A stretch of DNA of 64,000 nt from Candidatus Deferrimicrobiaceae bacterium (GCA_963792415.1 CAWBVY010000008.1:32001-96000); one strand, 5' to 3'; counted from the stretch's first letter, positions 41,621 through 56,556 are shown. Notes: generated from the letters alone by a model not told the origin. Numbers and translations: made by a program.

Positions 41621-41666
41621 ACCGACGGGGTGTTCTTCAAATATGGGGCATAGTACGATATCCGGC

Positions 41667-43292
41667 ATGAAACAGAACATCCTCCCGACGGCAGCGCCCC
41701 CCGCCCCCCCGCGTCGCTCCCTGGAAGGGCGCCTGCGATTCGAGACGCTGCTGGCCGATCTGTCGGCACGTTTCGTCAACCTGCCGGCGGACCAGCTGGA
41801 TGCCGCCATCGAGGATGCCCAGCGACGGGTTTGCGAATGCCTGGACCTCGATCTCTCCCTGCTCTGGCAGCTGCCCCCGGACCATACGGACACGATGTTC
41901 CTGACCCATAGACATCTGCCCCCGGGGTTTCCTCCCTTGCCGGAGGCCTGGGACTGCAAGGAGAATTTTCCGTGGGCCCTGGAGAGATTCCTCGTGGGCG
42001 AGACCATCGTCCTGTCCCGGATGACGGATGCTCCCGCCGAGGCCGCTCTCGACGTGGAGGTCGTGCGCCGGTTCGGCGTCAAATCGCTCGTGGCCATCCC
42101 ACTGGCCACGGGGGGCGGTCCGACCTTCGGCGCGCTGAATTTCGATGTCGTCCGGGAAGAGCGGGAGTGGCCGTCGGAACTCGTCGCCCGGCTGAAGCTT
42201 GTCGCGGACGTGTTCGCCAACGCCCTCGCCCGCAAGCGCGATGAGGAGGCGCTGCGGGAAAGGGATGCGCAGCTTCGGCAGACGCTGGAGGAGGTGCGGC
42301 GGCTTCGCGACCGGCTGCAGGTGGAGAACGTGTACCTGCGGGAGCAGCTTCGACGGGACGACGGGCACGCATCCATCGTTGGCGAGAGCGACGGAATCCT
42401 GAAGATGCTCGCGCAGGCGAAGCGGGTGGCGCCGACGGACGCGGCGGTGCTCATCACCGGCGAGACGGGCACGGGCAAGGAGTTGCTCGCGCAGGCGATT
42501 CACGACATGAGCGGCCGCAGCGCGAAGACCATGGTGATCGTCAACTGCGCCGCCCTGCCGCCGCCGCTGATCGAGAGCGAGCTGTTCGGGCGGGAGAAGG
42601 GCGCCTACACCGGGGCGATGACCCGTCAGGTCGGCCGCTTCGAAGTGGCGGACGGTTCGACGCTCTTTCTCGACGAGATCGGGGACCTTCCCACCGATCT
42701 CCAGGTCAAGCTGCTGCGCGTGCTGCAGGACGGACGGTTCGAGCGGCTGGGAAGCAACCGCACCCTCACGGCGAACGTCCGGGTGATCGCCGCCACGAAC
42801 CACGACCTGGGCGCCATGGTCCGGGACGGCAGGTTCCGGGAGGACCTGTTCCATCGCCTCAACGTCTTTCCGGTCGAGGTGCCCCCGTTGCGCGCCAGGG
42901 TCTCCGACATTCCGCTCCTGGTCTGGAACTTCGTGCAGGAGTTCAACAAGAAGATGGGGAAGTCGATCGACTCGATCCCCACGCAAGCCATGGAGCGGCT
43001 CAAGCAGTTCCCGTGGCCGGGCAATGTCCGCGAACTGCGGAATCTGATCGAGCGGGCGATGATCGTCAGCGACGGCCGCTCGTTGACCATCGACTTTCCG
43101 GCCGGCACCCGGGGACCGACCTCGATCCCCGTCACGCTGGAGGAGGTCGAGCGAAAGCATATCCGCGAGGTGCTGAAACGCGTGCATTGGAGGATCAGCG
43201 GCAAGGGGGGCGCGGCCGAGATCCTCGGGCTTCGTCCCACCACGCTCCATTCGCGGATGAAGAAGCTGGGCATTTCCCGCCCAAGGCTCTGA
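41667..43292 (+). CDS. Sigma-54-dependent enhancer-binding protein (GAF + AAA+ + HTH, FhlA/NifA-like)
   Basis: [36 protein letters not shown]-terminal [11 protein letters not shown]; N-terminal GAF-like region. Confidence 0.92.
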
Positions 43293-43453: not shown

Positions 43454-43469
43454 TGGTACGAATAGTGCG
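43454..43469 (+). promoter_or_regulatory. Sigma-54 -24/-12 promoter
   Basis: TGGTACGAATAGTGCG: GG-N10-GC spacing, close to TGGCACG-N4-TTGC. Confidence 0.7.
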
Positions 43470-43527
43470 TTACCAGTCTCCATGATTTCCGGAGACAGGT
43501 AAGATTCTGACGACCTGCGCGATCGAC

Positions 43528-43851
43528 ATGCATTTCGCGTCCAAGGACGTGGAGCACGCGGTCCTGCTGCTCCTCTCCGTCAAGGAGAACATCCGGGCGA
43601 AGCACGGCTGCCGCGCCTGCAAGGTCGGGTTGGATGCCACCGATGCAAATATCGTCCATTACTTCGAGGAGTGGGAATCGGCGGAGCTCTTCCAGAAGCA
43701 CATCCCGTCGGAAGAGTTCCGGCGTGTCCTCATTGCGATGGACCTGTGCTGCGAGGAACCCCGGATCGTGACAGGGGACCTGTCCGGGCACACCGGGTTG
43801 GAATATCTGCGCAAACTGCGGGAAGAAAAGGACAGGATACTGATCGCCTGA
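43528..43851 (+). CDS. ABM (antibiotic biosynthesis monooxygenase)/putative quinol monooxygenase-like protein
   Basis: GCRAC...HYFEEWESAELFQKHIPSEEFR pattern; the true start may be slightly upstream (CTG/ATT). Confidence 0.7.
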   Translation: MHFASKDVEHAVLLLLSVKENIRAKHGCRACKVGLDATDANIVHYFEEWESAELFQKHIPSEEFRRVLIAMDLCCEEPRIVTGDLSGHTGLEYLRKLREEKDRILIA

Positions 43852-43890
43852 CCGGAACGGGAAAGGAATCCACACACGGAGGAGGACGTC

Positions 43891-44775
43891 ATGAAGGAAC
43901 GGGACGAGGAACCCAGAGTAGCCCCCGGGGAAGGGGAAGGAGACTGTTCCCGCCGGAGCATCCTGCTGGGGTCTGCCGCGCTCCTCGCGGGGGGGATCGC
44001 GGGGCGCGTCAGCACCGCCTACTCCGCGATGGAACCGGCATGCGCCCCGGCGCCGCCCCTGCCCTGGAAGTGGCCCAAGCTCGACCCCCTGGAGGCCGGA
44101 ACGCGGACCTACGAGGCGTACCTGAAGAACAAAGGCTGAGGGAACGGCACATGGCTGGGGGTCCTCAGCCTTCTGAAAGAGCAGGGCGGTTATCCCTGGA
44201 CGACCCTTGCCGGACTACATGTTCGAGCACGCAGGCCAGGGGTACGCCGGGCACGGCACCCTTTGCGGCGCTCTTGGCGTCTGTTCGTGTCTCATCAACC
44301 TCGTTATCTACGACAAGGAACACAGCTATGCGGCGGTGATCGACCGGCTCTTCTGGTGGTACGCGCAGATGCGATTTCCCGACGGAGCGGTTCGACGCGA
44401 TCTCCGCGTTTCCCAATCAGGTCAAGGCCCAGGCGATGACCCCGCTCTGCCACTCCTCGGTCTCGAAGTGGACATTGGCCGCCGGCGCCGAGGTCAATTC
44501 CAAGGAGAAGTACGAACGGTGCGCCAAGGTGGCGGGGGAGGTCGTCTACACCGTGGTGTATTACCTGAACGAATATTTCGCGGGAAGGTGGAAGCCCGCC
44601 GTATGGACGCCGTCGAAGGAGACCGCGCACTGCATCGAATGCCACGGCCCGGACGGTTTTTTGCAATTATAGAAACGGCATGAACCAGCAGCAGGGCCAC
44701 ATGGAGTGCCTCCTCTGTCACAAGGACCACATGAAGGCCTTGATGGACAGGAGGGCGAGGAAGGTGAGGAAGTGA
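43891..44775 (+). CDS. Tat-exported C-GCAxxG-C-C family / split-Soret cytochrome c-like diheme protein, putative selenoprotein (UGA 44137-44139); three 1-base insertions
   Basis: GGAGG RBS; SRRSILL Tat motif; PLPWKWPKLDP; NKG-U-GNGTW; GYAGHGTLCGALG; PLCHSSVSKW; ERCAKV; CIECH; CLLCH. Frame shifts near 44206, 44380 and 44660. Confidence 0.8.
44153..44170 (+). promoter_or_regulatory. Putative bacterial SECIS hairpin for UGA 44137
   Basis: GGCTGGG-GGTC-CTCAGCC, a 7-bp stem with GGUC loop starting 13 nt after the UGA. Confidence 0.65.
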
Positions 44776-44842
44776 CCAGGTCCTGCGCACCTGGTGATGG
44801 AATCGCGTTTCCGAATCGCACGATACGGAAGGAGATGAACAG

Positions 44843-47800
44843 ATGGAGATAACCCGACGGGACTTTCTGAAGGTATCGGGTGCGGCCGGGACGGTCCTCA
44901 TCGGCGGACTGGGATTCGACCTGTCCCCGGCGGAGGCCTATGCCCGGGAGTTGAGGATCAAAGGGGCGAAGGTGACGACGTCGATCTGCTGTTACTGTTC
45001 GGTCGGCTGCGGCATCCTCGTGCACACCAGCGAGGGGAAGGTGATCAACACCGAGGGGGACCCCGAGCACCCGGTCAGCGAGGGGGCGCTCTGCTCCAAA
45101 GGTGGGTCGATCTACCAGGTGGTCAACAATGAGAACCGCCTTCAGAAGCCGCGCTACCGCGCGCCCGGCGCCACCGCGTGGAAGGATGTGGAGTGGGATT
45201 GGGCCCTGGACCAGATCGCCCGCAGGATCAAGGATACGCGGGACAAGACCTTCCGGGCGACCGTAACGGCAGGGGAGAAGAAGTTCCAGGTGAACAGGAC
45301 CGACGGCATCGCCCACGTGGGAAGCGCGGCCCTGGACAATGAAGAGTGCTACCTCATCCAGAAACTCGTGCGGTCCTGGGGCCTGGTGTACGTCGAACAC
45401 CAGGCGAGGCTTTGACACTCCGCCACTGTAGCGGCTCTGGGAGAGTCGTTCGGTCGCGGTGCGATGACGAATCACTGGAACGATCTGAAAAATGCCGACG
45501 TCATCCTCGTCATGGGGGCGAACCCGGCGTCGAACCACCCCATTTCGATGAAGTGGATGACGAGGGCGAGGGAACGCGGCGCGAAGCTCGTCTGCGTCGA
45601 TCCTCGCTTCACGCAGACCGCGGCGGTGGCCGACCTGTATGCGCCCCTGCGCTCCGGAACCGACATCGCGTTCCTCGGGGGGATGATCCACTACATTCTG
45701 GAACGGAACCTCTTCTTCAGGGAATACGTCGTCAACTACACCGACGCCCCGTTCCTCGTCCATGCGGACTTCAAGATGCCGGGCGAGCTCGACGGCGTCT
45801 TTTCGGGCTACAACGAAAAGGAAACGAAATACGACAGGAAGACGTGGGCGTTCCAGCTGGACGAGAAGGGCGTTCCCAAAAAGGATCCGACCCTGAAGGA
45901 TCCGAATTGCGTCTTCCAGCTGTTGAAGAAGCACTACTCCCGCTACACGGTGGAGAAGGTATCGCAGGTCACCGGGACCCCGAAGGAGAAACTCGAAGAG
46001 GTCTATGAAACCATCGGTTCGACGGGGAAGCCGGACCGGGCGGCGACGGGCTGCTACGCCATGGGGTGGACGCAGCATACGGTCGGCGTGCAGAACATAC
46101 GTGCCTTCACCATCGTGCAGCTCCTCCTCGGCAACATGGGGATGGCGGGGGGCGGAGTGAACGCGATGCGGGGGGAAGGGAACGTCCAGGGATCCACGGA
46201 CCACGCGATCCTCTTCCATATCCTGCCCGGATACCTCCCCACGCCGTCGGCCTCCCTCGTAAGCCTGAAGGACTATACCGGCAAGTACACGCCCACGACG
46301 AAGGAGCCGAAGAGCGTCAACTGGTGGGGGAACCGGGGGAAGTACATCACCAGCTACCTCAAGGCCCTCTACGGCGACCACGCGACGAAGGAGAACGACT
46401 TCGCCTACTCCTGGCTTCCGAAGCTCGACGAGGGGATGCAGGCGTCGTGGCTCCCGATGTTCGTCCAGATGTATCGGGGCGCGTTCGAAGGGTTCTTCGC
46501 CTGGGGGATGAACCCCGCCTGTTCGAGCCCGGGTGCGGGGAAGGCGAGAGAGGCTCTCGGAAAGCTGAAGTGGATGGTCAACGTCAACCTCTACGACAAC
46601 GAGACGGCCTCCTTCTGGAGAGGTCCGGGCATGAAGCCCGAAGAAGATCAGGACGGAGGTCTTCCTGTTGCCGTGCTGTTCCTCCGTCGAGAAGGAAGGG
46701 AGCATCTCGAACTCCGGCCGTCTCGCGCAGTGGAGATACAAGGCGATCGAGCCGCTCGGGCAGTCGATGCCCGACGCGGAGATCATGAACGAGCTCTACT
46801 TCCGGGTGAAGAAGCTCTACCAGAAGGGGAAAGGGGCCTTCCCCGATCCGATCGTGAATCTCACGTGGGAGTACGGGGAGAAGGACCCGCAGGGGAAGGT
46901 GAAGCACCTCGACATTCACAAGGTCGCGATGGAGATCAACGGGTATTACCACGAAGACGTGTACGACCAGAAGGCGACCCCCCCGAAGCTCATCGGCAGG
47001 AAAGGGAACCTGGTGCCGAACTTCGTGAGCCTGCGGGACGACGGATCCACGTCGAGCGGGAACTGGCTCTACAGCGGGAGCTACACCATGAAAGACGGAA
47101 AGGCCGTCAACATGATGGCCCGCAGGGGGAAGGAAGACCCGACCGGCCTCGGGCTCTATCCGAACTGGGCGTGGGCATGGCCGGTGAACCGGAGGGTCCT
47201 CTACAACCGCGCCTCCGTCGACTTGAACGGGAATCCGTGGGACCCGAACCGCCCGGTACTCAAATGGAACCCGGCGGACCCCGCTGCCGGGAAACCGGGC
47301 GGGTGGGCAGGAGACGTCCCCGACGGCCCGGCACCTCCCTCTGGGGAACGAGGGAGGGAAACTCCCCTTCATCATGAAGCCGCTCGGCGTCGGCACGATC
47401 TTCGGGAACCTTGGAGACGGTCCGTTTCCCGAGCATTACGAGCCGTTGGAGAGCCCGGTCCCGGCGAACCCCATGTCGAAAAAGCACCGGGTGAACCCGA
47501 CGCTTCCTCTTGCGAAACTGCAGGCGATGGCGAAGGACCCGACCTTCCTCTTCTCCTTCGATTTCAAGCGGTACCCCATCGTGGCGACGACATACCGCAT
47601 GAGCGAACATTGGCAGACGGGCGTCATGACCCGACACCTCCCCTGGCAGCTGGAGATGCAGCCCCAGATGTTCGTCGAGATGGACAAGGATCTGGCGGCG
47701 GAGAAGGGGATCAAAAACGGCGACACGGTGGTTGTGGCCTCCGCCAGGGGGAAGCTCTCCTGCCCCGCGATCGTGACGGATCGATTCAGGCCGTTCAGGA

Positions 47801-48024
47801 TCATGGACACCACGGTCCACCTGGTGGGGATGCCGTGGCACTTCGGGTGGCAGTTTCCCGCGGACGGCAGCGGAGGGGACAGCGCCAACCTCCTGACGCC
47901 GTTTCTCGGCGATCCGAACACCTGGATACCGGAATCGAAGGCCTTCATGGTCAACATCAGCAGACTCGCTGACCAGTCGGTTGAACCGGCGGCCGCGAAG
48001 ACCAAGAAGAGCAAGGGGAGGTAG
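44843..48024 (+). CDS. fdnG: Selenocysteine-containing formate dehydrogenase alpha subunit (FdnG/FdhA); two 1-base insertions
   Basis: TRRDFLK Tat signal, CCYCSVGC...ALCSKG, VEHQARL-U-HSATVAALGESFGRGAMTNHW (UGA 45413-45415), GWTQH, RGEGNVQG, PFPEHYEP; shifts near 46642 and 47340. Confidence 0.93.
45432..45448 (+). promoter_or_regulatory. Putative SECIS hairpin of fdnG
   Basis: CGGCTCT-GGG-AGAGTCG, starting 16 nt after the in-frame UGA. Confidence 0.7.
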
Positions 48025-48029
48025 CCGAC

Positions 48030-48758
48030 ATGGCGGGGAAATCCTTTTTCATAGACACGAGCCGGTGCACGGGGTGCCGGGGGTGCCAGGTTGCCTGCAA
48101 ACAGTGGAACCAGAACCCGGCAACGAAAACGTCCCAGCGGGGAACGTACCAGAACCCGCCGGACCTTTCGACCGCCACCTTCAAGTTGGTCAGATTCAGC
48201 GAAACGCCCGGCACGGGAGGGGACCCGAACTGGTTCTTCTTCCCCGACCAGTGCAGGCACTGCCTCTATCCCCTCTGTAAAATGGCGGCGGATCGAAAGG
48301 CGAAGGGGGCGATCGCCATCGATTCGAGAACCCGGGCCGTCACCTTCAATCCCGCGGTAAAGATATCTCCGGAAGATTTCAAGGAGGTCCGCGAGATCTG
48401 CCCGTTCGACATCCCCCGGTACGACGAGAAGTCCGGCGGCATGGCCAAATGCACGATGTGCTTCGACCGGATCACCGAGGGGATGCTTCCGTCCTGCGTC
48501 AAGGCGTGTCCCACGGGGACGATGAGTTTCGGCGATCGGGATGCCATCCTCAAGATGGCCGAAAACCGGCTTGATGAAGTGAGGAGAATCCACAGAAGAG
48601 CTTCGTTGATCGTTCCCGAGTCCGTCCGGGTGATCTTCCTCGTGAAGGATGATCCCGAGAAGTATTACGAGTTCGCCGCCGAGAGAACCGGGAGCGGGAA
48701 CATAAGGATGACGGCGATGGAGCGCCTCCGTCACCTTTCCTCCCTATACGGGGCATGA
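48030..48758 (+). CDS. fdnH: Formate dehydrogenase beta (Fe-S) subunit, no TM anchor
   Basis: CTGCRGCQVACKQWN, QCRHCLYPLC, CPFDIPR, KCTMCFDR, CVKACPTG. Confidence 0.92.
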   Translation: MAGKSFFIDTSRCTGCRGCQVACKQWNQNPATKTSQRGTYQNPPDLSTATFKLVRFSETPGTGGDPNWFFFPDQCRHCLYPLCKMAADRKAKGAIAIDSRTRAVTFNPAVKISPEDFKEVREICPFDIPRYDEKSGGMAKCTMCFDRITEGMLPSCVKACPTGTMSFGDRDAILKMAENRLDEVRRIHRRASLIVPESVRVIFLVKDDPEKYYEFAAERTGSGNIRMTAMERLRHLSSLYGA

Positions 48759-48801
48759 TCGGGGAGGCGATCCCGAAATTTCATGACGATGGAGAGGGAA
48801 T

Positions 48802-49623
48802 TTGGGGAAAACAGGAGAGAGGGTTCGGCAACTCAAAGGAAAACGACCAGGCTACGCGGAGATTCTGGACTTTTACGCAAAGGTCAGGGAGTTGCAGGAC
48901 CGATCGAAGTCCTCTTTGAAAACGGATCCGATAAAGCTCGAAAAGGAACGGAAGGAGCTCCTGGCCAGGGAAGGTTTTCCGTTGATCCGGAAAGAGGATT
49001 TTCCGTTGGACATCGAGGCGTCGATCCGGCTTTTCCGGTCCCTCTGCCGGATCGGGAAAGCGGCGAACTCTCACATGGCCGGGCAGGTGGAAAAGATCCG
49101 GGATCTTCTCGCCAAGAAAAAGATCGATCTGAAGAAATTATTCGATGGGGGAGTGAAGGAAGAAACGATCGAACAGGTTGCCGCCGAATCGGGATTGGAT
49201 CAATCGATCCTTTCGTTTCTCCTTCAGAGCAGCATCCGGCCTTCGATCGAGGCGGGAGTGGAGCAGCTTCGCGGGGAAGTCGATCCGGAAACCTGGCGAA
49301 AAGGTCACTGTCCCGCCTGTGGCTCCCCTCCCTCCCTGAGTCTGCTGAAAGGGGTGGAGGGGAAACGGTACCTTCTCTGCTCCTGCTGCGGTTCTCAATG
49401 GAGAGCGGACCGGCTCCGCTGCCCCGCCTGCGACAACAAGGAGCAGGAATCCCTGGGATATTTCTGCGCCGAGGGAGAGGAGGCCTTCCGCATCGATCTC
49501 TGCGATCGATGCCACCGGTATATCAAGACGATCGATTACAGAAACCTGGAAGAGTCCGATCCGTGCCTGGAGGATCTCGCCACCCTCCACCTCGATCTCC
49601 TGGCCTCCGAAGAAGGGGTATAA
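48802..49623 (+). CDS. fdhE: Formate dehydrogenase accessory protein FdhE
   Basis: CPACGS, RYLLCSCCGSQW, CPAC, IDLCDRCHRYIK, LATLHLD. True ends may be 48783 and 49687 if single-base insertions are removed. Confidence 0.9.
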   Translation: MGKTGERVRQLKGKRPGYAEILDFYAKVRELQDRSKSSLKTDPIKLEKERKELLAREGFPLIRKEDFPLDIEASIRLFRSLCRIGKAANSHMAGQVEKIRDLLAKKKIDLKKLFDGGVKEETIEQVAAESGLDQSILSFLLQSSIRPSIEAGVEQLRGEVDPETWRKGHCPACGSPPSLSLLKGVEGKRYLLCSCCGSQWRADRLRCPACDNKEQESLGYFCAEGEEAFRIDLCDRCHRYIKTIDYRNLEESDPCLEDLATLHLDLLASEEGV

Positions 49624-49733
49624 AAGACCCGATGGGGTGGGTCGGGATCTGAAATCCGCACTGCTGGGAATTCCCAGGCGGGAGTAGATCCGGTGGTGCA
49701 CTTCATCTCAAGCAACGGAAAAGGAGACGGATC

Positions 49734-51461
49734 ATGAAGGTCATCATCGTTGGGGGAGTGGCCGGCGGCGCGTCGTGCGCGGCGCGTTTGCGCAGGGTGG
49801 ACGAAAAGGCCGAGATCCTCATGGTCGAGCGCGGGCCGTACGTCTCGTATGCGAACTGCGGGCTGCCGTACCACGTCGGGGGCGCGATCGAAAAGGAGTC
49901 GAGCCTCCTGGTGGCGACGGAACAGACGTTCCGCGGGGTGTTCGGGATCGATTGCCGGACGCGCTGCGAGGTCGTCGGCATCTCGTCGAAGAAGAAGACC
50001 GTGGACCTCAAGAACCACGGTACCGGGGAGGTGACCACCGAGAAGTACGACAAACTCGTGCTGTCGCCCGGGGCGGCGCCGATCCGCCCGCCGCTGCCCG
50101 GCATCGATCTTCCGGGGATCTTCTCCGTGAGAACCGTGCCGGACGCCCGGAGCATACGCGAGTGGCTCGACCGCGGGACGGAGGTTCGATCCGGCATGGG
50201 TTCGTACACGGGATTCCAGACGGCGACGAAGACGAAGCGCGCGGTGGTGGTCGGCGGCGGGTTCATCGGCCTCGAGATGGTGGAGAACCTGGTCCACCGC
50301 GGGGGCGAGCGGCACGATCTTCCGCCCCAGGAGGCTCCCCGGGTCGAAGTGACGCTGATCGAGAAGCTCGATCAGGTCATGCCCCCGCTCGATCCGGAGA
50401 TGGCGCACGTCGTCGAGCGATACATGACAAAGCACGGCGTCCGGCTCGAGCTCAACGACGGCGTGGCCGGATTCCGGCAGACCGGAGACGGTTCGCTGGA
50501 AGTCCTGACCGGTTCCGGAAAGGTGCACCCGGCGGATATCGTGATCCTCGCGATCGGGGTCCGCCCGGAGACCGAGCTGGCGAAGATGGCCGGGATCGAG
50601 ATCGGCCAGCGCGGCGGGATCCGCGTCGACGAGCAGATGCGCACGAGCGACCCGGACATCTTCGCCGTCGGCGACGCGGTCGAGGTCAAGGATTTCGTCA
50701 CCGGCGAATGGACGCTCATTCCCCTCGCCGGGCCGGCCAACCGGCAGGGCCGGATCGTGGCCGACGTGATCGCCGGGCGCGACTCCCGCTACCGCGGCAC
50801 GCAGGGGACCTCGATCTGCAAGATCTTCGAGGGGGTGATCGCCCAGACCGGCGCCAGCGAGAAGACCCTTGTCCGGCTCGGGGACAAGGATTTCGAGAAG
50901 ATCTACCTTTACCCGAATTCGCACGCGGGGTACTACCCGGGCGCGAAGATGCTCGCGATCAAGGTCCTCTTCCGGAAATCGGACGGGCGTCTCCTCGGGG
51001 CGCAGGTGCTGGGCGAGGAAGGTGTTCCAAAGCGGATCGACTCCTTCGCCATGGCGATCCAGATGGGCTGCACGGTTTACGACCTGGAGGAGGCGGAGCT
51101 TTGCTACGCTCCCCCGTTCGGCAGCGCGAAGGACCCCGTCAACTTCGCGGGGATGATCGCGGCGAATCTCCTGCGCGGCGACATGCCGCTCTGCCACTGG
51201 GACTCCGTGGACGGTGCGTTCCTCCTCGACGTGCGCAATCCCCAGGAACTCGCCGTGGAGTCCGTTCCGGGCGCGCACAACATCCCGCTGCCGCAGCTCC
51301 GCGCACGCCTGGGCGAACTTCCCCGCGACCGCGAGATCCTCACCATCTGCCGCTCCGCCACGCGCGCCTACTATGCCACGCGCATCCTTCTGCAGAACGG
51401 GTTCAAGGCCCGGAACATCTCCGGCGGCATGCTGTCGCGTTCGATGCTCGCGGCAAAGTGA
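49734..51461 (+). CDS. CoA-disulfide / persulfide reductase with C-terminal rhodanese domain (Cdr/Npsr-like)
   Basis: GGVAGG, SYANCGLPY, GGGFIGLE, FAVGD, HAGYYPG, YAPPF, rhodanese LLDVR...CRSATRA. Confidence 0.9.
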   Translation: MKVIIVGGVAGGASCAARLRRVDEKAEILMVERGPYVSYANCGLPYHVGGAIEKESSLLVATEQTFRGVFGIDCRTRCEVVGISSKKKTVDLKNHGTGEVTTEKYDKLVLSPGAAPIRPPLPGIDLPGIFSVRTVPDARSIREWLDRGTEVRSGMGSYTGFQTATKTKRAVVVGGGFIGLEMVENLVHRGGERHDLPPQEAPRVEVTLIEKLDQVMPPLDPEMAHVVERYMTKHGVRLELNDGVAGFRQTGDGSLEVLTGSGKVHPADIVILAIGVRPETELAKMAGIEIGQRGGIRVDEQMRTSDPDIFAVGDAVEVKDFVTGEWTLIPLAGPANRQGRIVADVIAGRDSRYRGTQGTSICKIFEGVIAQTGASEKTLVRLGDKDFEKIYLYPNSHAGYYPGAKMLAIKVLFRKSDGRLLGAQVLGEEGVPKRIDSFAMAIQMGCTVYDLEEAELCYAPPFGSAKDPVNFAGMIAANLLRGDMPLCHWDSVDGAFLLDVRNPQELAVESVPGAHNIPLPQLRARLGELPRDREILTICRSATRAYYATRILLQNGFKARNISGGMLSRSMLAAK

Positions 51462-51492
51462 AACAGCGGAAGGCGATGGAGGGCGATAGATC

Positions 51493-52047
51493 ATGAGCAG
51501 CACAGGAAAGAAAAAAGGGGACCTGAAGAAGAAGATCGTCCACGAACTGGTCGAGTACTGGATCAATGTCATTTATCTCGCCCTCGTGTTCGCCGCCTTC
51601 ACGCAGTACCGGAGGCTCCTTCTGGCCGCACACGACATCACGTACACGAATTACGGATTTGCCGTGATCGAAGCGTTGATTCTCGCGAAAGTCATCATGA
51701 TCGGAGACGTGTTCCGCCTCGGCCGCGGCCTGGAACGGAAGCCCTTGATCTATCCCACCCTGTACAAGACGGTCGTTTTCACTCTCTTTGTCGCCGTCTT
51801 TACCCTCGTCGAGCATGGGATCAAGGGTCTTTGGAAGGGGGAGGGATTCACGGGTGGCATCGTTGACTTCTTCGGGAAAGGATCCGATGAAATCCTCGCC
51901 AATTCCCTGGTCGTTTTTGTCGCATTCATCCCCTTCTTCGCCATCAAGGAGTTGGGGCGGGTGTTAGGGCAGGACAGGATAAGAGCTCTCTTTTTCCGGA
52001 GAAGGGACGAGCAAGGAGCCGGAAGTTTCGACCCGCGGAAGATATGA
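51493..52047 (+). CDS. Hypothetical integral membrane protein (about 4 TM helices)
   Basis: Hydrophobic helices, ALILAKVI, FIPFFA; GGAGG RBS. Confidence 0.75.
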   Translation: MSSTGKKKGDLKKKIVHELVEYWINVIYLALVFAAFTQYRRLLLAAHDITYTNYGFAVIEALILAKVIMIGDVFRLGRGLERKPLIYPTLYKTVVFTLFVAVFTLVEHGIKGLWKGEGFTGGIVDFFGKGSDEILANSLVVFVAFIPFFAIKELGRVLGQDRIRALFFRRRDEQGAGSFDPRKI

Positions 52048-52284: not shown

Positions 52285-52318
52285 GCCAACCCGATGTTGA
52301 GGCAAACGGAGGCGCCCC

Positions 52319-55084
52319 ATGAACGCCGAACACGACCGACTGAAGGAATCCCGGGAGCGGAAGGTCCTCTGGAAGAAATGGGGGCCGTACCTGAGCGAGC
52401 GGCAGTGGGGGACGGTCCGCGAGGATTACAGCGAGGGGGGCGACGCCTGGAACTTCTTCACCCACGACCATGCCCGCTCGCGCGCCTATCGCTGGGGCGA
52501 GGACGGCATCGCCGGCATTTCCGATGACAAGCAGCGCCTCTGCTTCGCGCTGGCCCTGTGGAACGGGAAGGACCCCATCCTCAAGGAACGGCTCTTCGGC
52601 CTGACCAACAGCGAAGGCAACCACGGCGAGGACGTCAAGGAGTACTACTTCTACCTCGACAGCACGCCGACCCACTCCTACATGAAGTACCTCTACAAGT
52701 ACCCGCAGGCGGCCTTTCCCTACGCCGACCTGGTGGAGACGAACCGCCGTCGCACCCGGGAGGAGATGGAGTACGAACTCCTCGACACCGGCGTCTTCAA
52801 TGACGACCGCTACTTCGACGTCTTCGTGGAGTACGCCAAGGACGGTCCGGACGACATCCTGGTGAAGATCACCGCGGCCAACCGGGGACCGGACGGCGGC
52901 CGAACTGCACCTCCTGCCGACGCTCTGGTTCCGGAACGACTGGTCTGCGTGGATCGCCGAGTCAGCAGGGCCGCCGAGAAACCGAACCTCAAGCAGATCA
53001 AGGCGGCGGCGGGCACGAGCGCGGTCGCGGCGACGCATCCGGTGCTGGGGGAGTACATCCTCTGCTGCGAAGGCGAGGTGCCGCTGCTCTTCACCGAGAA
53101 CGAGACGAACCACGAGCGGCTCTTCCCCGGGACAGAAGAACGAGAGCCCCCACGTCAAGGACGGCATCAACGACTGCGTGGTACAGGGCAATCAGGGCGC
53201 GGTGAACCCCGAAAAGCAGGGCACCAAGGTCGCGGCGCACTACCGGCTGAAGGTCGGCCCCGGCCAGTCGGCGACGGTGCGGCTGCGCCTGACGGCTCGG
53301 CCGCTGCCGTGCGAGCGGAAAACCAAGGCAGCGCAGCCCCTTCGGCCCGGAGTTCGACGAAGATCCTGGCCGCCCGGCTGCAGGAGGCGGACGAGTTCTA
53401 CCGGTCGGTGACCCCGCCTTCCGTCTCGCCGGACGCGGCCAACGTGATGCGCCAGGCCATCGCCGGCATGCTGTGGAGCAAGCAGTTCTACTTCTTCGAC
53501 GGCGACAACTGGCTGGACGAGCACAACTCCAATCCCCTCCATGCCGGGTATCGCGCCTCCCGGAACTCGGAGTGGTTCCACATGGTCAACGAGGACATCA
53601 TCTCGATGCCCGACAAGTGGGAGTACCCCTGGTACGCGGCCTGGGACCTGGCCTTCCACACGCTCCCGCTCGCGATCGTGGACCCCGACTTCGCCAAGGA
53701 GCAGATGGAACTGATGCTGCGCGGGGTCTACCTGCACCCCAGCGGCCAGATGCCCGCCTACGAGTGGAACTTCAGCGACGTGAACCCCCCGGTCCACGCC
53801 TTCGCGACGCTCTTCCTGCACCGCACCGAGCAGGCCCTGCGCGGCGAGACGGACGTCGATTTCCTCAAGTCGGCGTTCAACAAGCTGCTGCTGAACTTCA
53901 CCTGGTGGGTGAACCGCAAGGACCGGTTCGGCAAGAACGTCTTCGAGGGGGGCTTCCTCGGCCTCGACAACATCGGCGTCTTCGACCGCAGCGCCCCGCT
54001 GCCGACCGGCGGCCACCTGGAGCAGGCGGACGGCACGGCGTGGATGGCCCTCTTCAGCCAGAACATGCTGGAACTTGCGGTCGGAGACTCGCCGCCCACG
54101 ACCCCACCTACGAGGACATGGTCTCGAAGTTCGCCGAGCACTTCTACTACATCGCCGCCGCCATGAACCGCCCGGGCCAGGACGGCATGTGGGACGAGGA
54201 GGACGGCTTCTACTACGACCTGCTGCGGCTCCCCGACGGCAGCGCCACGCGGCTCAAGGTGCGCTCGATGGTGGGGCTCCTGCCCCTGTGCGCGACGACG
54301 GTGATCGAGGCGTGGCAGCGGGAGCGCGTTCCGCGGGCGATGGCCCAGATCCAGGAACGCCTGCGCCGGATGCCCGAGCTGCTGACAGTCCATCCACCCC
54401 ACGGGCCCGGGACACTTCGGCGTGGCCGACCGGGGGATCATGGCCCTGGTCAACCCGGAGCGGCTCCGCCGGATCCTCACGAAGATGCTCGACGAGAACG
54501 AGTTCCTGGGCCCCTACGGCATCCGCTCGCTCTCCAAGTTCCACGAGCAGCACCCGTACGTCTTCCACGTGAACGGCCAGGAGTACCGGGTGGACTACCT
54601 GCCGGCCGAGTCGAACACCGGCATGTTCGGCGGCAACTCCAACTGGCGGGGCCCGGTCTGGATGCCGGTGAACGCGCTCATCATCCGGGCGCTGCTGAAC
54701 TTCTACCTGTACTACGGCGACAACTTCAAGATCGAATGCCCCACCGGCTCCGGGCAAGATGATGAACCTCTTCGAGGTCGCCAAGGAGATCGCCGACCGG
54801 CTCAGCCGGATCTTCCTGCGCGACGAACACGGCCGGCGCCCCGTCTACGGCGGCACGGAGAAGTTCCAGACCGATCCCCACTGGCGCGATCACCTCCTCT
54901 TCTACGAGTACTTCCACGGCGACAACGGCGCCGGGCTGGGCGCCAGCCACCAGACCGGCTGGACCGGGCTCGTGGCCAAGACCATCCAGCTGTACGGGCT
55001 CCTGGATTCCAAGCGGGCGCTGGAGGGGGGCAAGCAGGCCGCGTTCATAAGGGCGCCCGCGGCGCCGGGGGGCAGAAGGGATGA
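52319..55084 (+). CDS. MGH1-like glycoside hydrolase family 63 (glucosidase), multiply frameshifted
   Basis: [83 protein letters not shown] spread over ORFs 52319, 53178, 53473, 54422 and 54759. Confidence 0.85.
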
Positions 55085-56556
55085 GAGAGTGGCCCAGGCA
55101 TCCGGTCATCTACGAGATCAACACGTGGGTGTGGCTGGGCGACCTGAGCCGGAAATACCGGAGGGTCGTGGATGTCGCCACGGTTCCGGAGCGGGAGTGG
55201 GATGCCGTTGCCTCCCATGGGGTTGACGCCGTATGGCTCATGGGGGTGTGGGAGCGGAGCCCGGCCGGGATCGAAATTTCCATGCGCAACCAGGGGCTCC
55301 TCGAGGATTTCCGGAGAGCCCTCCCCGACGTTTCGGCGGAGGACAATGTCGGCTCCCCCTACTGCGTGCGCCGCTACGTCGTCGACGAACACCTCGGCGG
55401 TCCGCACGGGCTCGCGGCAGCCCGTGACACCCTCGCGAGGCGCGGCATCCGTCTCATCCTCGATTTCGTGCCGAACCATGTCGCTCCGGACCACCCCTGG
55501 GTCGTCGAACATCCGGAATACTTCGTCCAGGGGAGCGCCGACGATGCGGGGAACGATCCGGCATCCTTCGTGGAGGCGGGAGGAACGGTGTTCGCCCGCG
55601 GCCGGGATCCCTACTTCCCGGCGTGGCCCGACGTGCTCCAGCTCAACGCCTTCCAGCCGGGGCTCCGGCAGGCGGTGATCGGGACGGTCTCGGAGATCGC
55701 CGGACAGTGCGACGGCATCCGGTGCGACATGGCGATGCTCATGCTGAACGATGTCTTCGAGCGAACCTGGGGGGCTCGTGCGGGAGCAAAGCCGGGCGAC
55801 GATTTTTGGACGACGGTCATCCCGGCGGTCAAAGGGAGGCATCGGGAGTTCCGGTTCCTGGCCGAGGCGTACTGGGACCTCGAGTGGGAGCTGCAGCAGC
55901 AGGGGTTCGACTGGTGCTACGACAAGAAGCTCTACGACCGGATGGAGCACGGGGACGCCGAGAGCGTGCGCCTGCACCTCCTTGCGGATTCTTCCTACCA
56001 GGAGAGAATGGTCCGGTTCCTCGAGAACCACGACGAGCCGAGGGCGGCCGCCACGTTTCCTTCTCCGAAAGGGCGCGCCGCGGCAGTGGCGATCCTCACG
56101 CTTCCGGGGGCGAAGCTGCTGCACGAGGGTCAGTTCGAGGGAAGGAAGGTGAGATTGCCCGTCTTCCTGGGCCGCCGCCCGGCAGAGCCGGTCGATCCGG
56201 ACCTCGCGGCCTTCTACGACAATCTTCTGAAGGTGACCAATCTCGATGTTTTTCGGAACGGTCAATGGCGCCTCTGCGAGCGGAGCGGCTGGCCCGACAA
56301 CCAGAGCTGCCGGAATCTCCTGGCCTGGTGCTGGCGCAAGGACGAAGAGCGCTTCCTCGTCGTCGTGAATTTTTCCGACAGGACCTCGCAGGCGCTCGTC
56401 CGTGTGCCGTGGGAGGAACTGGGAGGGAGGACGTGGCGTCTTACGGATGCCTTCTCGGGAGATGTCTACGGCCGCAGCGGTGACGCGATGAGGGATTCCG
56501 GTCTGTACGTCGACCTGAAGCCCTGGGGGTACCACATCTTCGCCCTGGGCAGCTGA
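55081..56556 (+). CDS. Alpha-amylase family (GH13) glycosidase
   Basis: [28 protein letters not shown]. Confidence 0.9.

Follow-up and report, generated by a model that had tools for sequence, protein, structure and literature searches.

In the window, the whole 64,000-nt stretch of DNA that was analysed, the gene at 43891-44775 most probably encodes an intact, Tat-exported homologue of split-Soret cytochrome c in which a UGA codon is translated as selenocysteine (Sec) by means of a downstream hairpin, and the frameshifts that interrupt it are assembly errors. We give this reading a probability of about 0.85. The predicted protein would consist of an N-terminal C-GCAxxG-C-C domain of the four-Cys type followed by two C-terminal CxxCH haem sites, and would be periplasmic. 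The gene is a real selenoprotein gene that is mis-annotated in public collections, and it is an addition to a family of which selenium forms are known.

The ORF listing contains an 82-aa ORF (43891-44139) that terminates at the TGA at 44137-44139. Three-frame translation revealed that the same frame continues past this TGA as GNGTWLGVLSLLKEQGGYPWTT, and that the coding sense within the gene passes from frame one to the second, then to the third and finally to the first again. When one base is omitted at each of three single-base insertions, the gene comprises 293 codons and a stop, and its sole in-frame TGA is codon 83. This agrees with the first-pass annotation, which had described an 82-aa ORF whose frame stays open beyond its TGA, a product of about 293 aa once three single-base insertions are dropped, and a Tat signal together with the motifs GTLCGALG, PLCH, ERCAK, CIECH and CLLCH, each of which was located at verified coordinates. 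The features of the gene are:

43891..44775, + strand: ssc-like gene, predicted to encode a Tat-signal, Sec-containing split-Soret / C-GCAxxG-C-C dihaem cytochrome c
43948..43965, + strand: twin-arginine motif SRRSIL of the signal peptide, with a hydrophobic stretch after it
44137..44139, + strand: in-frame TGA predicted to be read as selenocysteine (codon 83), at the first Cys position of the four-Cys signature
44153..44170, + strand: SECIS-like hairpin with a 7-bp stem and the loop GGUC
44204..44209, + strand: first extra base (public contigs are without 44204 or without 44209)
44264..44266, + strand: second conserved Cys (GTLCGALG), from the homologue alignment
44373..44375, + strand: second extra base (public contigs are without 44373 or without 44375)
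44448..44450, + strand: third conserved Cys (PLCH), from the homologue alignment
44520..44522, + strand: fourth conserved Cys (ERCAK), from the homologue alignment
44631..44645, + strand: haem c site 1, CIECH, aligned with a site of 1H21
44667..44668, + strand: third extra base (public contigs and the G014 alignment)
44707..44721, + strand: haem c site 2, CLLCH, aligned with a site of 1H21
44773..44775, + strand: the ssc-like gene's own stop, TGA

The Pfam TAT_signal match in the window was weak (E 0.041; 14.3 bits vs the cut-off of 22.7), and the SRR of the signal peptide was found to be conserved in the alignment of full-length homologues. The pieces of the window gene are collinear on the NCBIfam model for split-Soret cytochrome c, NF047622 (profile positions 2-94, 97-147 and 171-245), and a broken piece on its own gave a weak match of 17.1 bits to the Pfam family C_GCAxxG_C_C. 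A genome of the same genus, G014, carries the ssc-like gene (locus L004) in a single frame, with a TGA at the same place and with fdhA following. The protein of this one-frame orthologue with the TGA read as U, P0001, matched the split-Soret cytochrome c of PDB entry 1H21 with an E of 5.8e-25 over 220 residues (37-256 vs 18-234). In this alignment the TGA of P0001 stands opposite the first of 1H21's four conserved Cys, and the remaining three Cys and both CxxCH motifs were aligned as well. P0001 also passed the gathering score of Pfam PF09719 (30.0 vs 27 bits), a domain that it shares with the C-GCAxxG-C-C selenoproteins. Collectively, the 1H21 match, the PF09719 score and the collinear NF047622 pieces support the split-Soret-like dihaem cytochrome identity that had been proposed from the window sequence.

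P0001 scored 127 bits on NF047622, below the equivalog cut-off of 400 bits. A Cys homologue from a second same-genus genome, G009, reached 140 bits, also under this cut-off, and no genome among the 60 relatives searched gave a score over it. On TIGR01909 (cut-off 47.4 bits) there was no match for P0001, and the G009 homologue scored 16.5 bits. Because 127 bits falls short of the 400-bit equivalog cut-off, the predicted window protein is, by profile score, a distant homologue of Desulfovibrio Ssc that belongs to a separate orthologous group. The architecture and length are like those of Ssc from Desulfovibrio desulfuricans ATCC 27774 (1H21; NF047622), and both proteins have a Tat-type signal. 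In contrast to Desulfovibrio Ssc, the window gene is predicted to carry selenocysteine at the first Cys and heads a formate dehydrogenase cluster. In D. alaskensis, mutants of both split-Soret genes had no phenotype, according to the partial text of PMC4215793.

To compare the TGA position between species, one genome per species was scanned, giving 115 relatives, and the best 80 of 115 loci were kept; these are the loci nearest to the query, and counts among them give no natural frequency. One of them, L008, duplicates the G014 sequence. At the Sec column, the best 80 of the 115 loci have TGA in 30, TGC in 47 and TGT in 3, which amounts to Cys in 50/80 and TGA in 30/80. Cys was also found at this column in all 11 full-length database homologues aligned and in the same-genus G009 homologue. 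The alignments thus contain both Cys and UGA at the column, the comparison that the first-pass annotation had proposed, and its claim that Sec replaces the first Cys is supported by the Cys in 1H21 and in 50 of the best 80 loci. At the level of sequence, we therefore consider a selenocysteine at the first of the four conserved cysteines of the Cys homologues to be supported. Between the TGA and the next ATG, the reading frame shows conservation at the protein level in 31/31 TGA sequences. Since the TGA, the frame beyond it and the hairpin recur together in 30 other loci, the pattern is more than chance. A genome-wide reassignment of TGA was rejected, as the stops of the ssc-like gene and of fdhB are both TGA; with the ssc-like gene's own stop being TGA, the recoding is local and the codon is not reassigned.

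The nearest database proteins (77-96% identity) are calls of 182-196 aa that start downstream of the TGA, and the full-length database matches (56-67% identity) have Cys at the TGA column. In the five closest database clusters, which were looked up and have 570 members, the clade appears either as two separate fragment calls or as one shortened 'hypothetical protein', and the members read include N-terminal fragments of 66-82 aa. Because the clade is mis-called, it is missed when selenoproteins are counted or cytochromes inventoried in anaerobic sediment bacteria. Two public calls, P0171 and P0187, are full length and have W at the TGA column, evidently through use of a code in which TGA is Trp.

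The hairpin described in the first-pass annotation, with a GGUC loop and starting 13 nt past the UGA, was found on the sequence as a stem of GGCTGGG (44153-44159) and CTCAGCC (44164-44170) that encloses the loop GGTC (44160-44163). An ungapped alignment of the 31 TGA sequences (30 distinct) was used for the hairpin tests. The 7-bp hairpin was kept in 31/31 of these sequences, with 98.1% of cells paired compared to 37.6-71.4% when the partner columns were slid. Wobble positions within the stem were invariant or nearly so (0-0.27 bits), whereas those outside the stem were variable (0.68-1.98 bits). At least 6 of the 7 pairs were formed in 22/22 Sec rows tested compared to 0/50 Cys rows, and the mean hairpin energy was -11.8 kcal/mol for Sec rows compared to -3.2 kcal/mol for Cys rows. 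The hairpin was thus kept in every TGA form and could form in 0/50 Cys forms. No compensatory double change occurred at any hairpin pair among the 31 TGA sequences. Five of the seven pairs are invariant and the other two vary on one side, for which reason the covariation shuffles equalled the observed values. When the 45 nt past the UGA were folded as a single sequence, the result was no better than shuffles (z 0.11). A 76-nt fold gave a z of -2.56, and its minimum-energy structure pairs an arm containing the UGA with the 3' arm. This alternative pairing was rejected as a conserved structure, its 5' arm being altered in 8/31 sequences in which the downstream hairpin is retained. Rfam gave 0 matches in the whole window at gathering scores; at E up to 10, the region 44080-44260 returned a chance lncRNA match and no SECIS. 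We propose that SelB and tRNA-Sec would insert selenocysteine at the UGA at 44137-44139 under the direction of the downstream hairpin.

The source genome (2.84 Mb in 11 contigs) was found to contain all four of selA, selB, selC and selD, the genes that the first-pass annotation had named as a check. A tRNA-Sec was found, and profile matches across the genome gave 324 bits for selB and 555 bits for selA, both unbroken, and 317 bits for selD. A TatC gene is present and cytochrome c assembly proteins are encoded. The selD gene (L007, G000:C4:526405-527208) has an in-frame TGA in SCAG*ASK and is itself a selenoprotein gene; its family match ends at profile position 272/311, and it may have a break near its end.

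Aligned with the G014 orthologue, the window gene is 95% identical in DNA and has exactly three one-base insertions, near 44204, 44373 and 44667. The reframed window protein and the G014 protein are identical at 251/271 aligned residues. We aligned to 43500-48000 the short-read contigs of four public runs, one from each of four studies (three DNA libraries and one RNA library); the runs come from relatives or are of unknown source, and none contained more than 0.52 of the stretch's words. At 44204/44209, 44373/44375, 44668 and 46636, all covering contig depth in the four studies was without one base. At 47337/47340, contigs without a base were found in 3/4 runs, in X1 for part of the depth. 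The contig of X1 record 2 (289 nt) had 2 gaps and 0 substitutions relative to the window, and that of X6 record 27 (219 nt) had 1 gap and 0 substitutions. At 3/5 sites, two in the ssc-like gene and one in fdhA, strains differed in which of the neighbouring bases was missing. The window carries both bases at both such sites of the ssc-like gene, and this looks like a merge of co-occurring strain alleles. The first-pass annotation had proposed to confirm the insertions in reads; in the public contigs of the four studies, the extra bases are missing. Programmed frameshifting was rejected on the basis of the public contigs without the extra bases. Contigs of the RNA library, run X15, span the ssc-like gene and the fdhA junction, which is no proof of transcription. 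Elsewhere in the window, seven genes at 33-43 kb have end-to-end Pfam matches in one frame. A gene for a GH63 / MGH1-like glycosidase at about 52301-55100 has at least three frame changes, near 54090, 54390 and 54770; because it also breaks frame, clustered indel errors that extend beyond the fdh locus are suggested.

The insertions in the ssc-like gene and in fdhA could instead be real and inactivate a decaying formate dehydrogenase cluster, which would make the gene a genuine pseudogene. They are present in the window sequence as given, and the family is sporadic in the genus, with matches in 2/27 other same-genus genomes, of which one has a Cys homologue whose gene context differs. The source reads are also probably outside the runs compared, each of which holds 0.52 or less of the stretch's words, and for this reason decay keeps some probability. 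We nevertheless regard it as improbable. Contigs that are otherwise letter-identical to the window (over 289 nt and 219 nt) are without the extra bases, and all five changes are +1 insertions with no accompanying nonsense or other change. The strain-dependent missing bases, with both bases in the window at two sites, resemble a merged consensus, and an unrelated glycosidase gene 8 kb off shows the same kind of breaks. It is far less credible that the TGA at 44137 is a true stop, so that the locus would encode a short peptide with a Tat signal and, downstream, a second protein, even though public collections hold calls of 66-82 aa and 172-198 aa for the two halves. The downstream half would have two haem c sites yet no signal peptide, and the stretch from the TGA to the next ATG shows protein-level conservation in every one of the 31 sequences. 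Furthermore, 50 loci encode the protein uninterrupted with Cys at the column, the hairpin occurs with TGA only, and the genome has the Sec machinery. Most likely, the three extra bases are assembly errors and the gene is intact in the organism. A metagenome-assembled genome with clustered one-base insertions can thus appear to contain pseudogenes.

Among the 60 relatives, two genomes gave matches, both of the same genus (G014 and G009). The G009 homologue (L003:1468-2277, - strand) is a Cys form of 270 aa with one CxxCH. It is flanked by a porin-like gene on one side and a multihaem cytochrome gene on the other, a context unlike that of the fdh-linked Sec form. A quick maximum-likelihood tree of 80 proteins was built with the Sec/Cys column masked, with the neighbouring columns constrained by the hairpin retained, and with a midpoint root. 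One branch, with an SH-aLRT of 100, has all 30 Sec rows on one side and all 50 Cys rows on the other, which corresponds to one change on the tree. The Sec rows are labelled as Thermodesulfobacteriota, Nitrospirota, Pseudomonadota and others (at least three phyla), labels of bins that can be wrong.

The C-GCAxxG-C-C family is catalogued with Sec forms in two reviews (PMC13188914, PMC9312934), one from 2026 that lists 'form 1' and 'form 2' as selenoproteins and one from 2022 that lists the family as such, and the NCBIfam name of TIGR01909 is 'C-GCAxxG-C-C family (seleno)protein'. This name and the review tables bear out the statement in the first-pass annotation that Sec variants of the family had already been predicted. 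The catalogued Sec forms differ from the description of the window gene in that the tables, in the parts of the two reviews available (PMC13188914, PMC9312934), list them with no Sec position, haem or split-Soret. Judging by adjacent entries of the table, reference 60 of the 2026 review, given for form 1, is probably the study of the Olavius symbiont, in which a selenoprotein is termed a 'putative redox protein' (PMC1976440, in excerpt). Among the papers searched, none combines 'split-Soret' with 'selenocysteine'.

The genes downstream of the ssc-like gene form a formate dehydrogenase cluster with the following features:

44843..48024, + strand: fdhA, Tat-signal formate dehydrogenase alpha subunit, with a Sec TGA at 45413-45415
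near 46636 and 47337-47340, + strand: two one-base frame breaks in fdhA
48030..48758, + strand: fdhB, 4Fe-4S subunit, with no hydrophobic C-terminal tail by eye
48787..49620, + strand: fdhE-like maturation gene, an open frame whose start codon is not fixed

The local order is a sigma-54 activator gene, a small ABM-family gene, the ssc-like gene, fdhA, fdhB, the fdhE-like gene and a pyridine-nucleotide disulfide oxidoreductase gene, and fdhA begins 67 nt past the ssc-like gene. Between 48.7 and 52 kb, Pfam searches detected no cytochrome b gene. A 185-aa hydrophobic membrane protein with no Pfam family, which might be a membrane-bound partner for the dehydrogenase, is encoded just past the fdh cluster, at 51490-52044. 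Among the best 80 loci, fdhA directly follows the cytochrome gene in 10, all of them Sec forms of one subclade. The other 70/80 have no fdhA beside the cytochrome gene, their neighbours being heterogeneous, and for this reason a role with formate dehydrogenase cannot be general. Pfam scans of 78 downstream and 40/78 upstream frames revealed no conserved partner outside the formate dehydrogenase subclade.

In Desulfovibrio vulgaris, FdhABC3 consists of a periplasmic FdhAB with a dedicated cytochrome c3 subunit. The cluster in the window is similar to FdhABC3 in that it is predicted to encode a Tat-exported Sec-FdhA, a 4Fe-4S FdhB and a c-type cytochrome of the periplasm, and none of its genes was recognised as one for a membrane cytochrome b. 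In contrast, the window cytochrome is predicted to be a dihaem split-Soret protein with a four-residue site rather than a tetrahaem c3, and it is encoded first in the cluster. Because the gene stands first in a Sec-fdhA/fdhB/fdhE cluster in which no membrane cytochrome b was recognised, its product may well be a periplasmic acceptor for formate dehydrogenase. Within the fdh-linked subclade, we put it at about even odds that the cytochrome, as a soluble acceptor, would take up electrons from the periplasmic, Sec-containing FdhAB encoded downstream. The link to a Sec-FdhAB for which no membrane subunit was recognised points to a possible function of split-Soret cytochromes.

Split-Soret cytochrome c reportedly contains a non-haem iron centre bound by the four Cys, as described by Abreu et al. 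in 2003. The four-residue site of the window protein may hold the same kind of centre as the Desulfovibrio protein, in which case Sec would be either a ligand or a redox-tuning neighbour of the iron. In FdhA and in [NiFeSe] hydrogenase, Sec binds Mo/W or Ni at the catalytic site. As in these enzymes, the Sec position would be that of a Cys metal ligand in homologues, whereas by analogy with the Desulfovibrio protein the Sec site predicted here would be an electron-transfer iron centre. We hold only tentatively, and as somewhat doubtful, the combined proposal that Sec ligates non-haem iron and that the cytochrome is a dedicated electron-accepting subunit of Sec-FdhAB. If true, an electron-transfer protein would contain a naturally occurring Fe-Se bond, and two selenoproteins would make up a periplasmic formate-oxidising module. 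A comparison of the matched Sec and Cys forms of this small, soluble protein that occur in the clade could reveal the effect of selenium at an iron centre.

Sec may also be incorporated with no role as an iron ligand, and instead form a selenol or a selenenyl-sulfide with a conserved Cys in a thiol-type redox module. We consider this unlikely, although Pfam describes the domain merely as a 'putative redox-active protein' and prokaryotic selenoproteins mostly use Sec in thiol-like redox chemistry, according to the portion of PMC1976440 available. The Sec of the window protein would lie outside any UxxC/CxxU motif, with the next conserved Cys 42 residues away. In addition, a Tat signal suits a cofactor that is inserted in the cytoplasm, and the solved homologue is said to carry the non-haem iron centre described by Abreu et al. 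in 2003.

The uninterrupted pyridine-nucleotide disulfide oxidoreductase gene at 49653-51458 has a C-terminal rhodanese domain. The cytochrome gene has a similar Pyr_redox_2 gene immediately downstream in L017 and L041, and a rhodanese gene downstream in L039. Sec forms of the CoA-disulfide-reductase family are listed in the accessible part of a review. A sigma-54 -24/-12 consensus pattern was not enriched in the window (36 matches vs 45 expected), a sigma-70 scan of the window gave 0 sites, and terminators occurred at chance rate. A weak sigma-54-like site at 43454-43468, no more than a hint, lies between the GAF/sigma-54 activator gene (41643-43292) and the ABM gene. Sigma-54 activator or ABM genes also flank the cytochrome gene in L013, L021 and L036.
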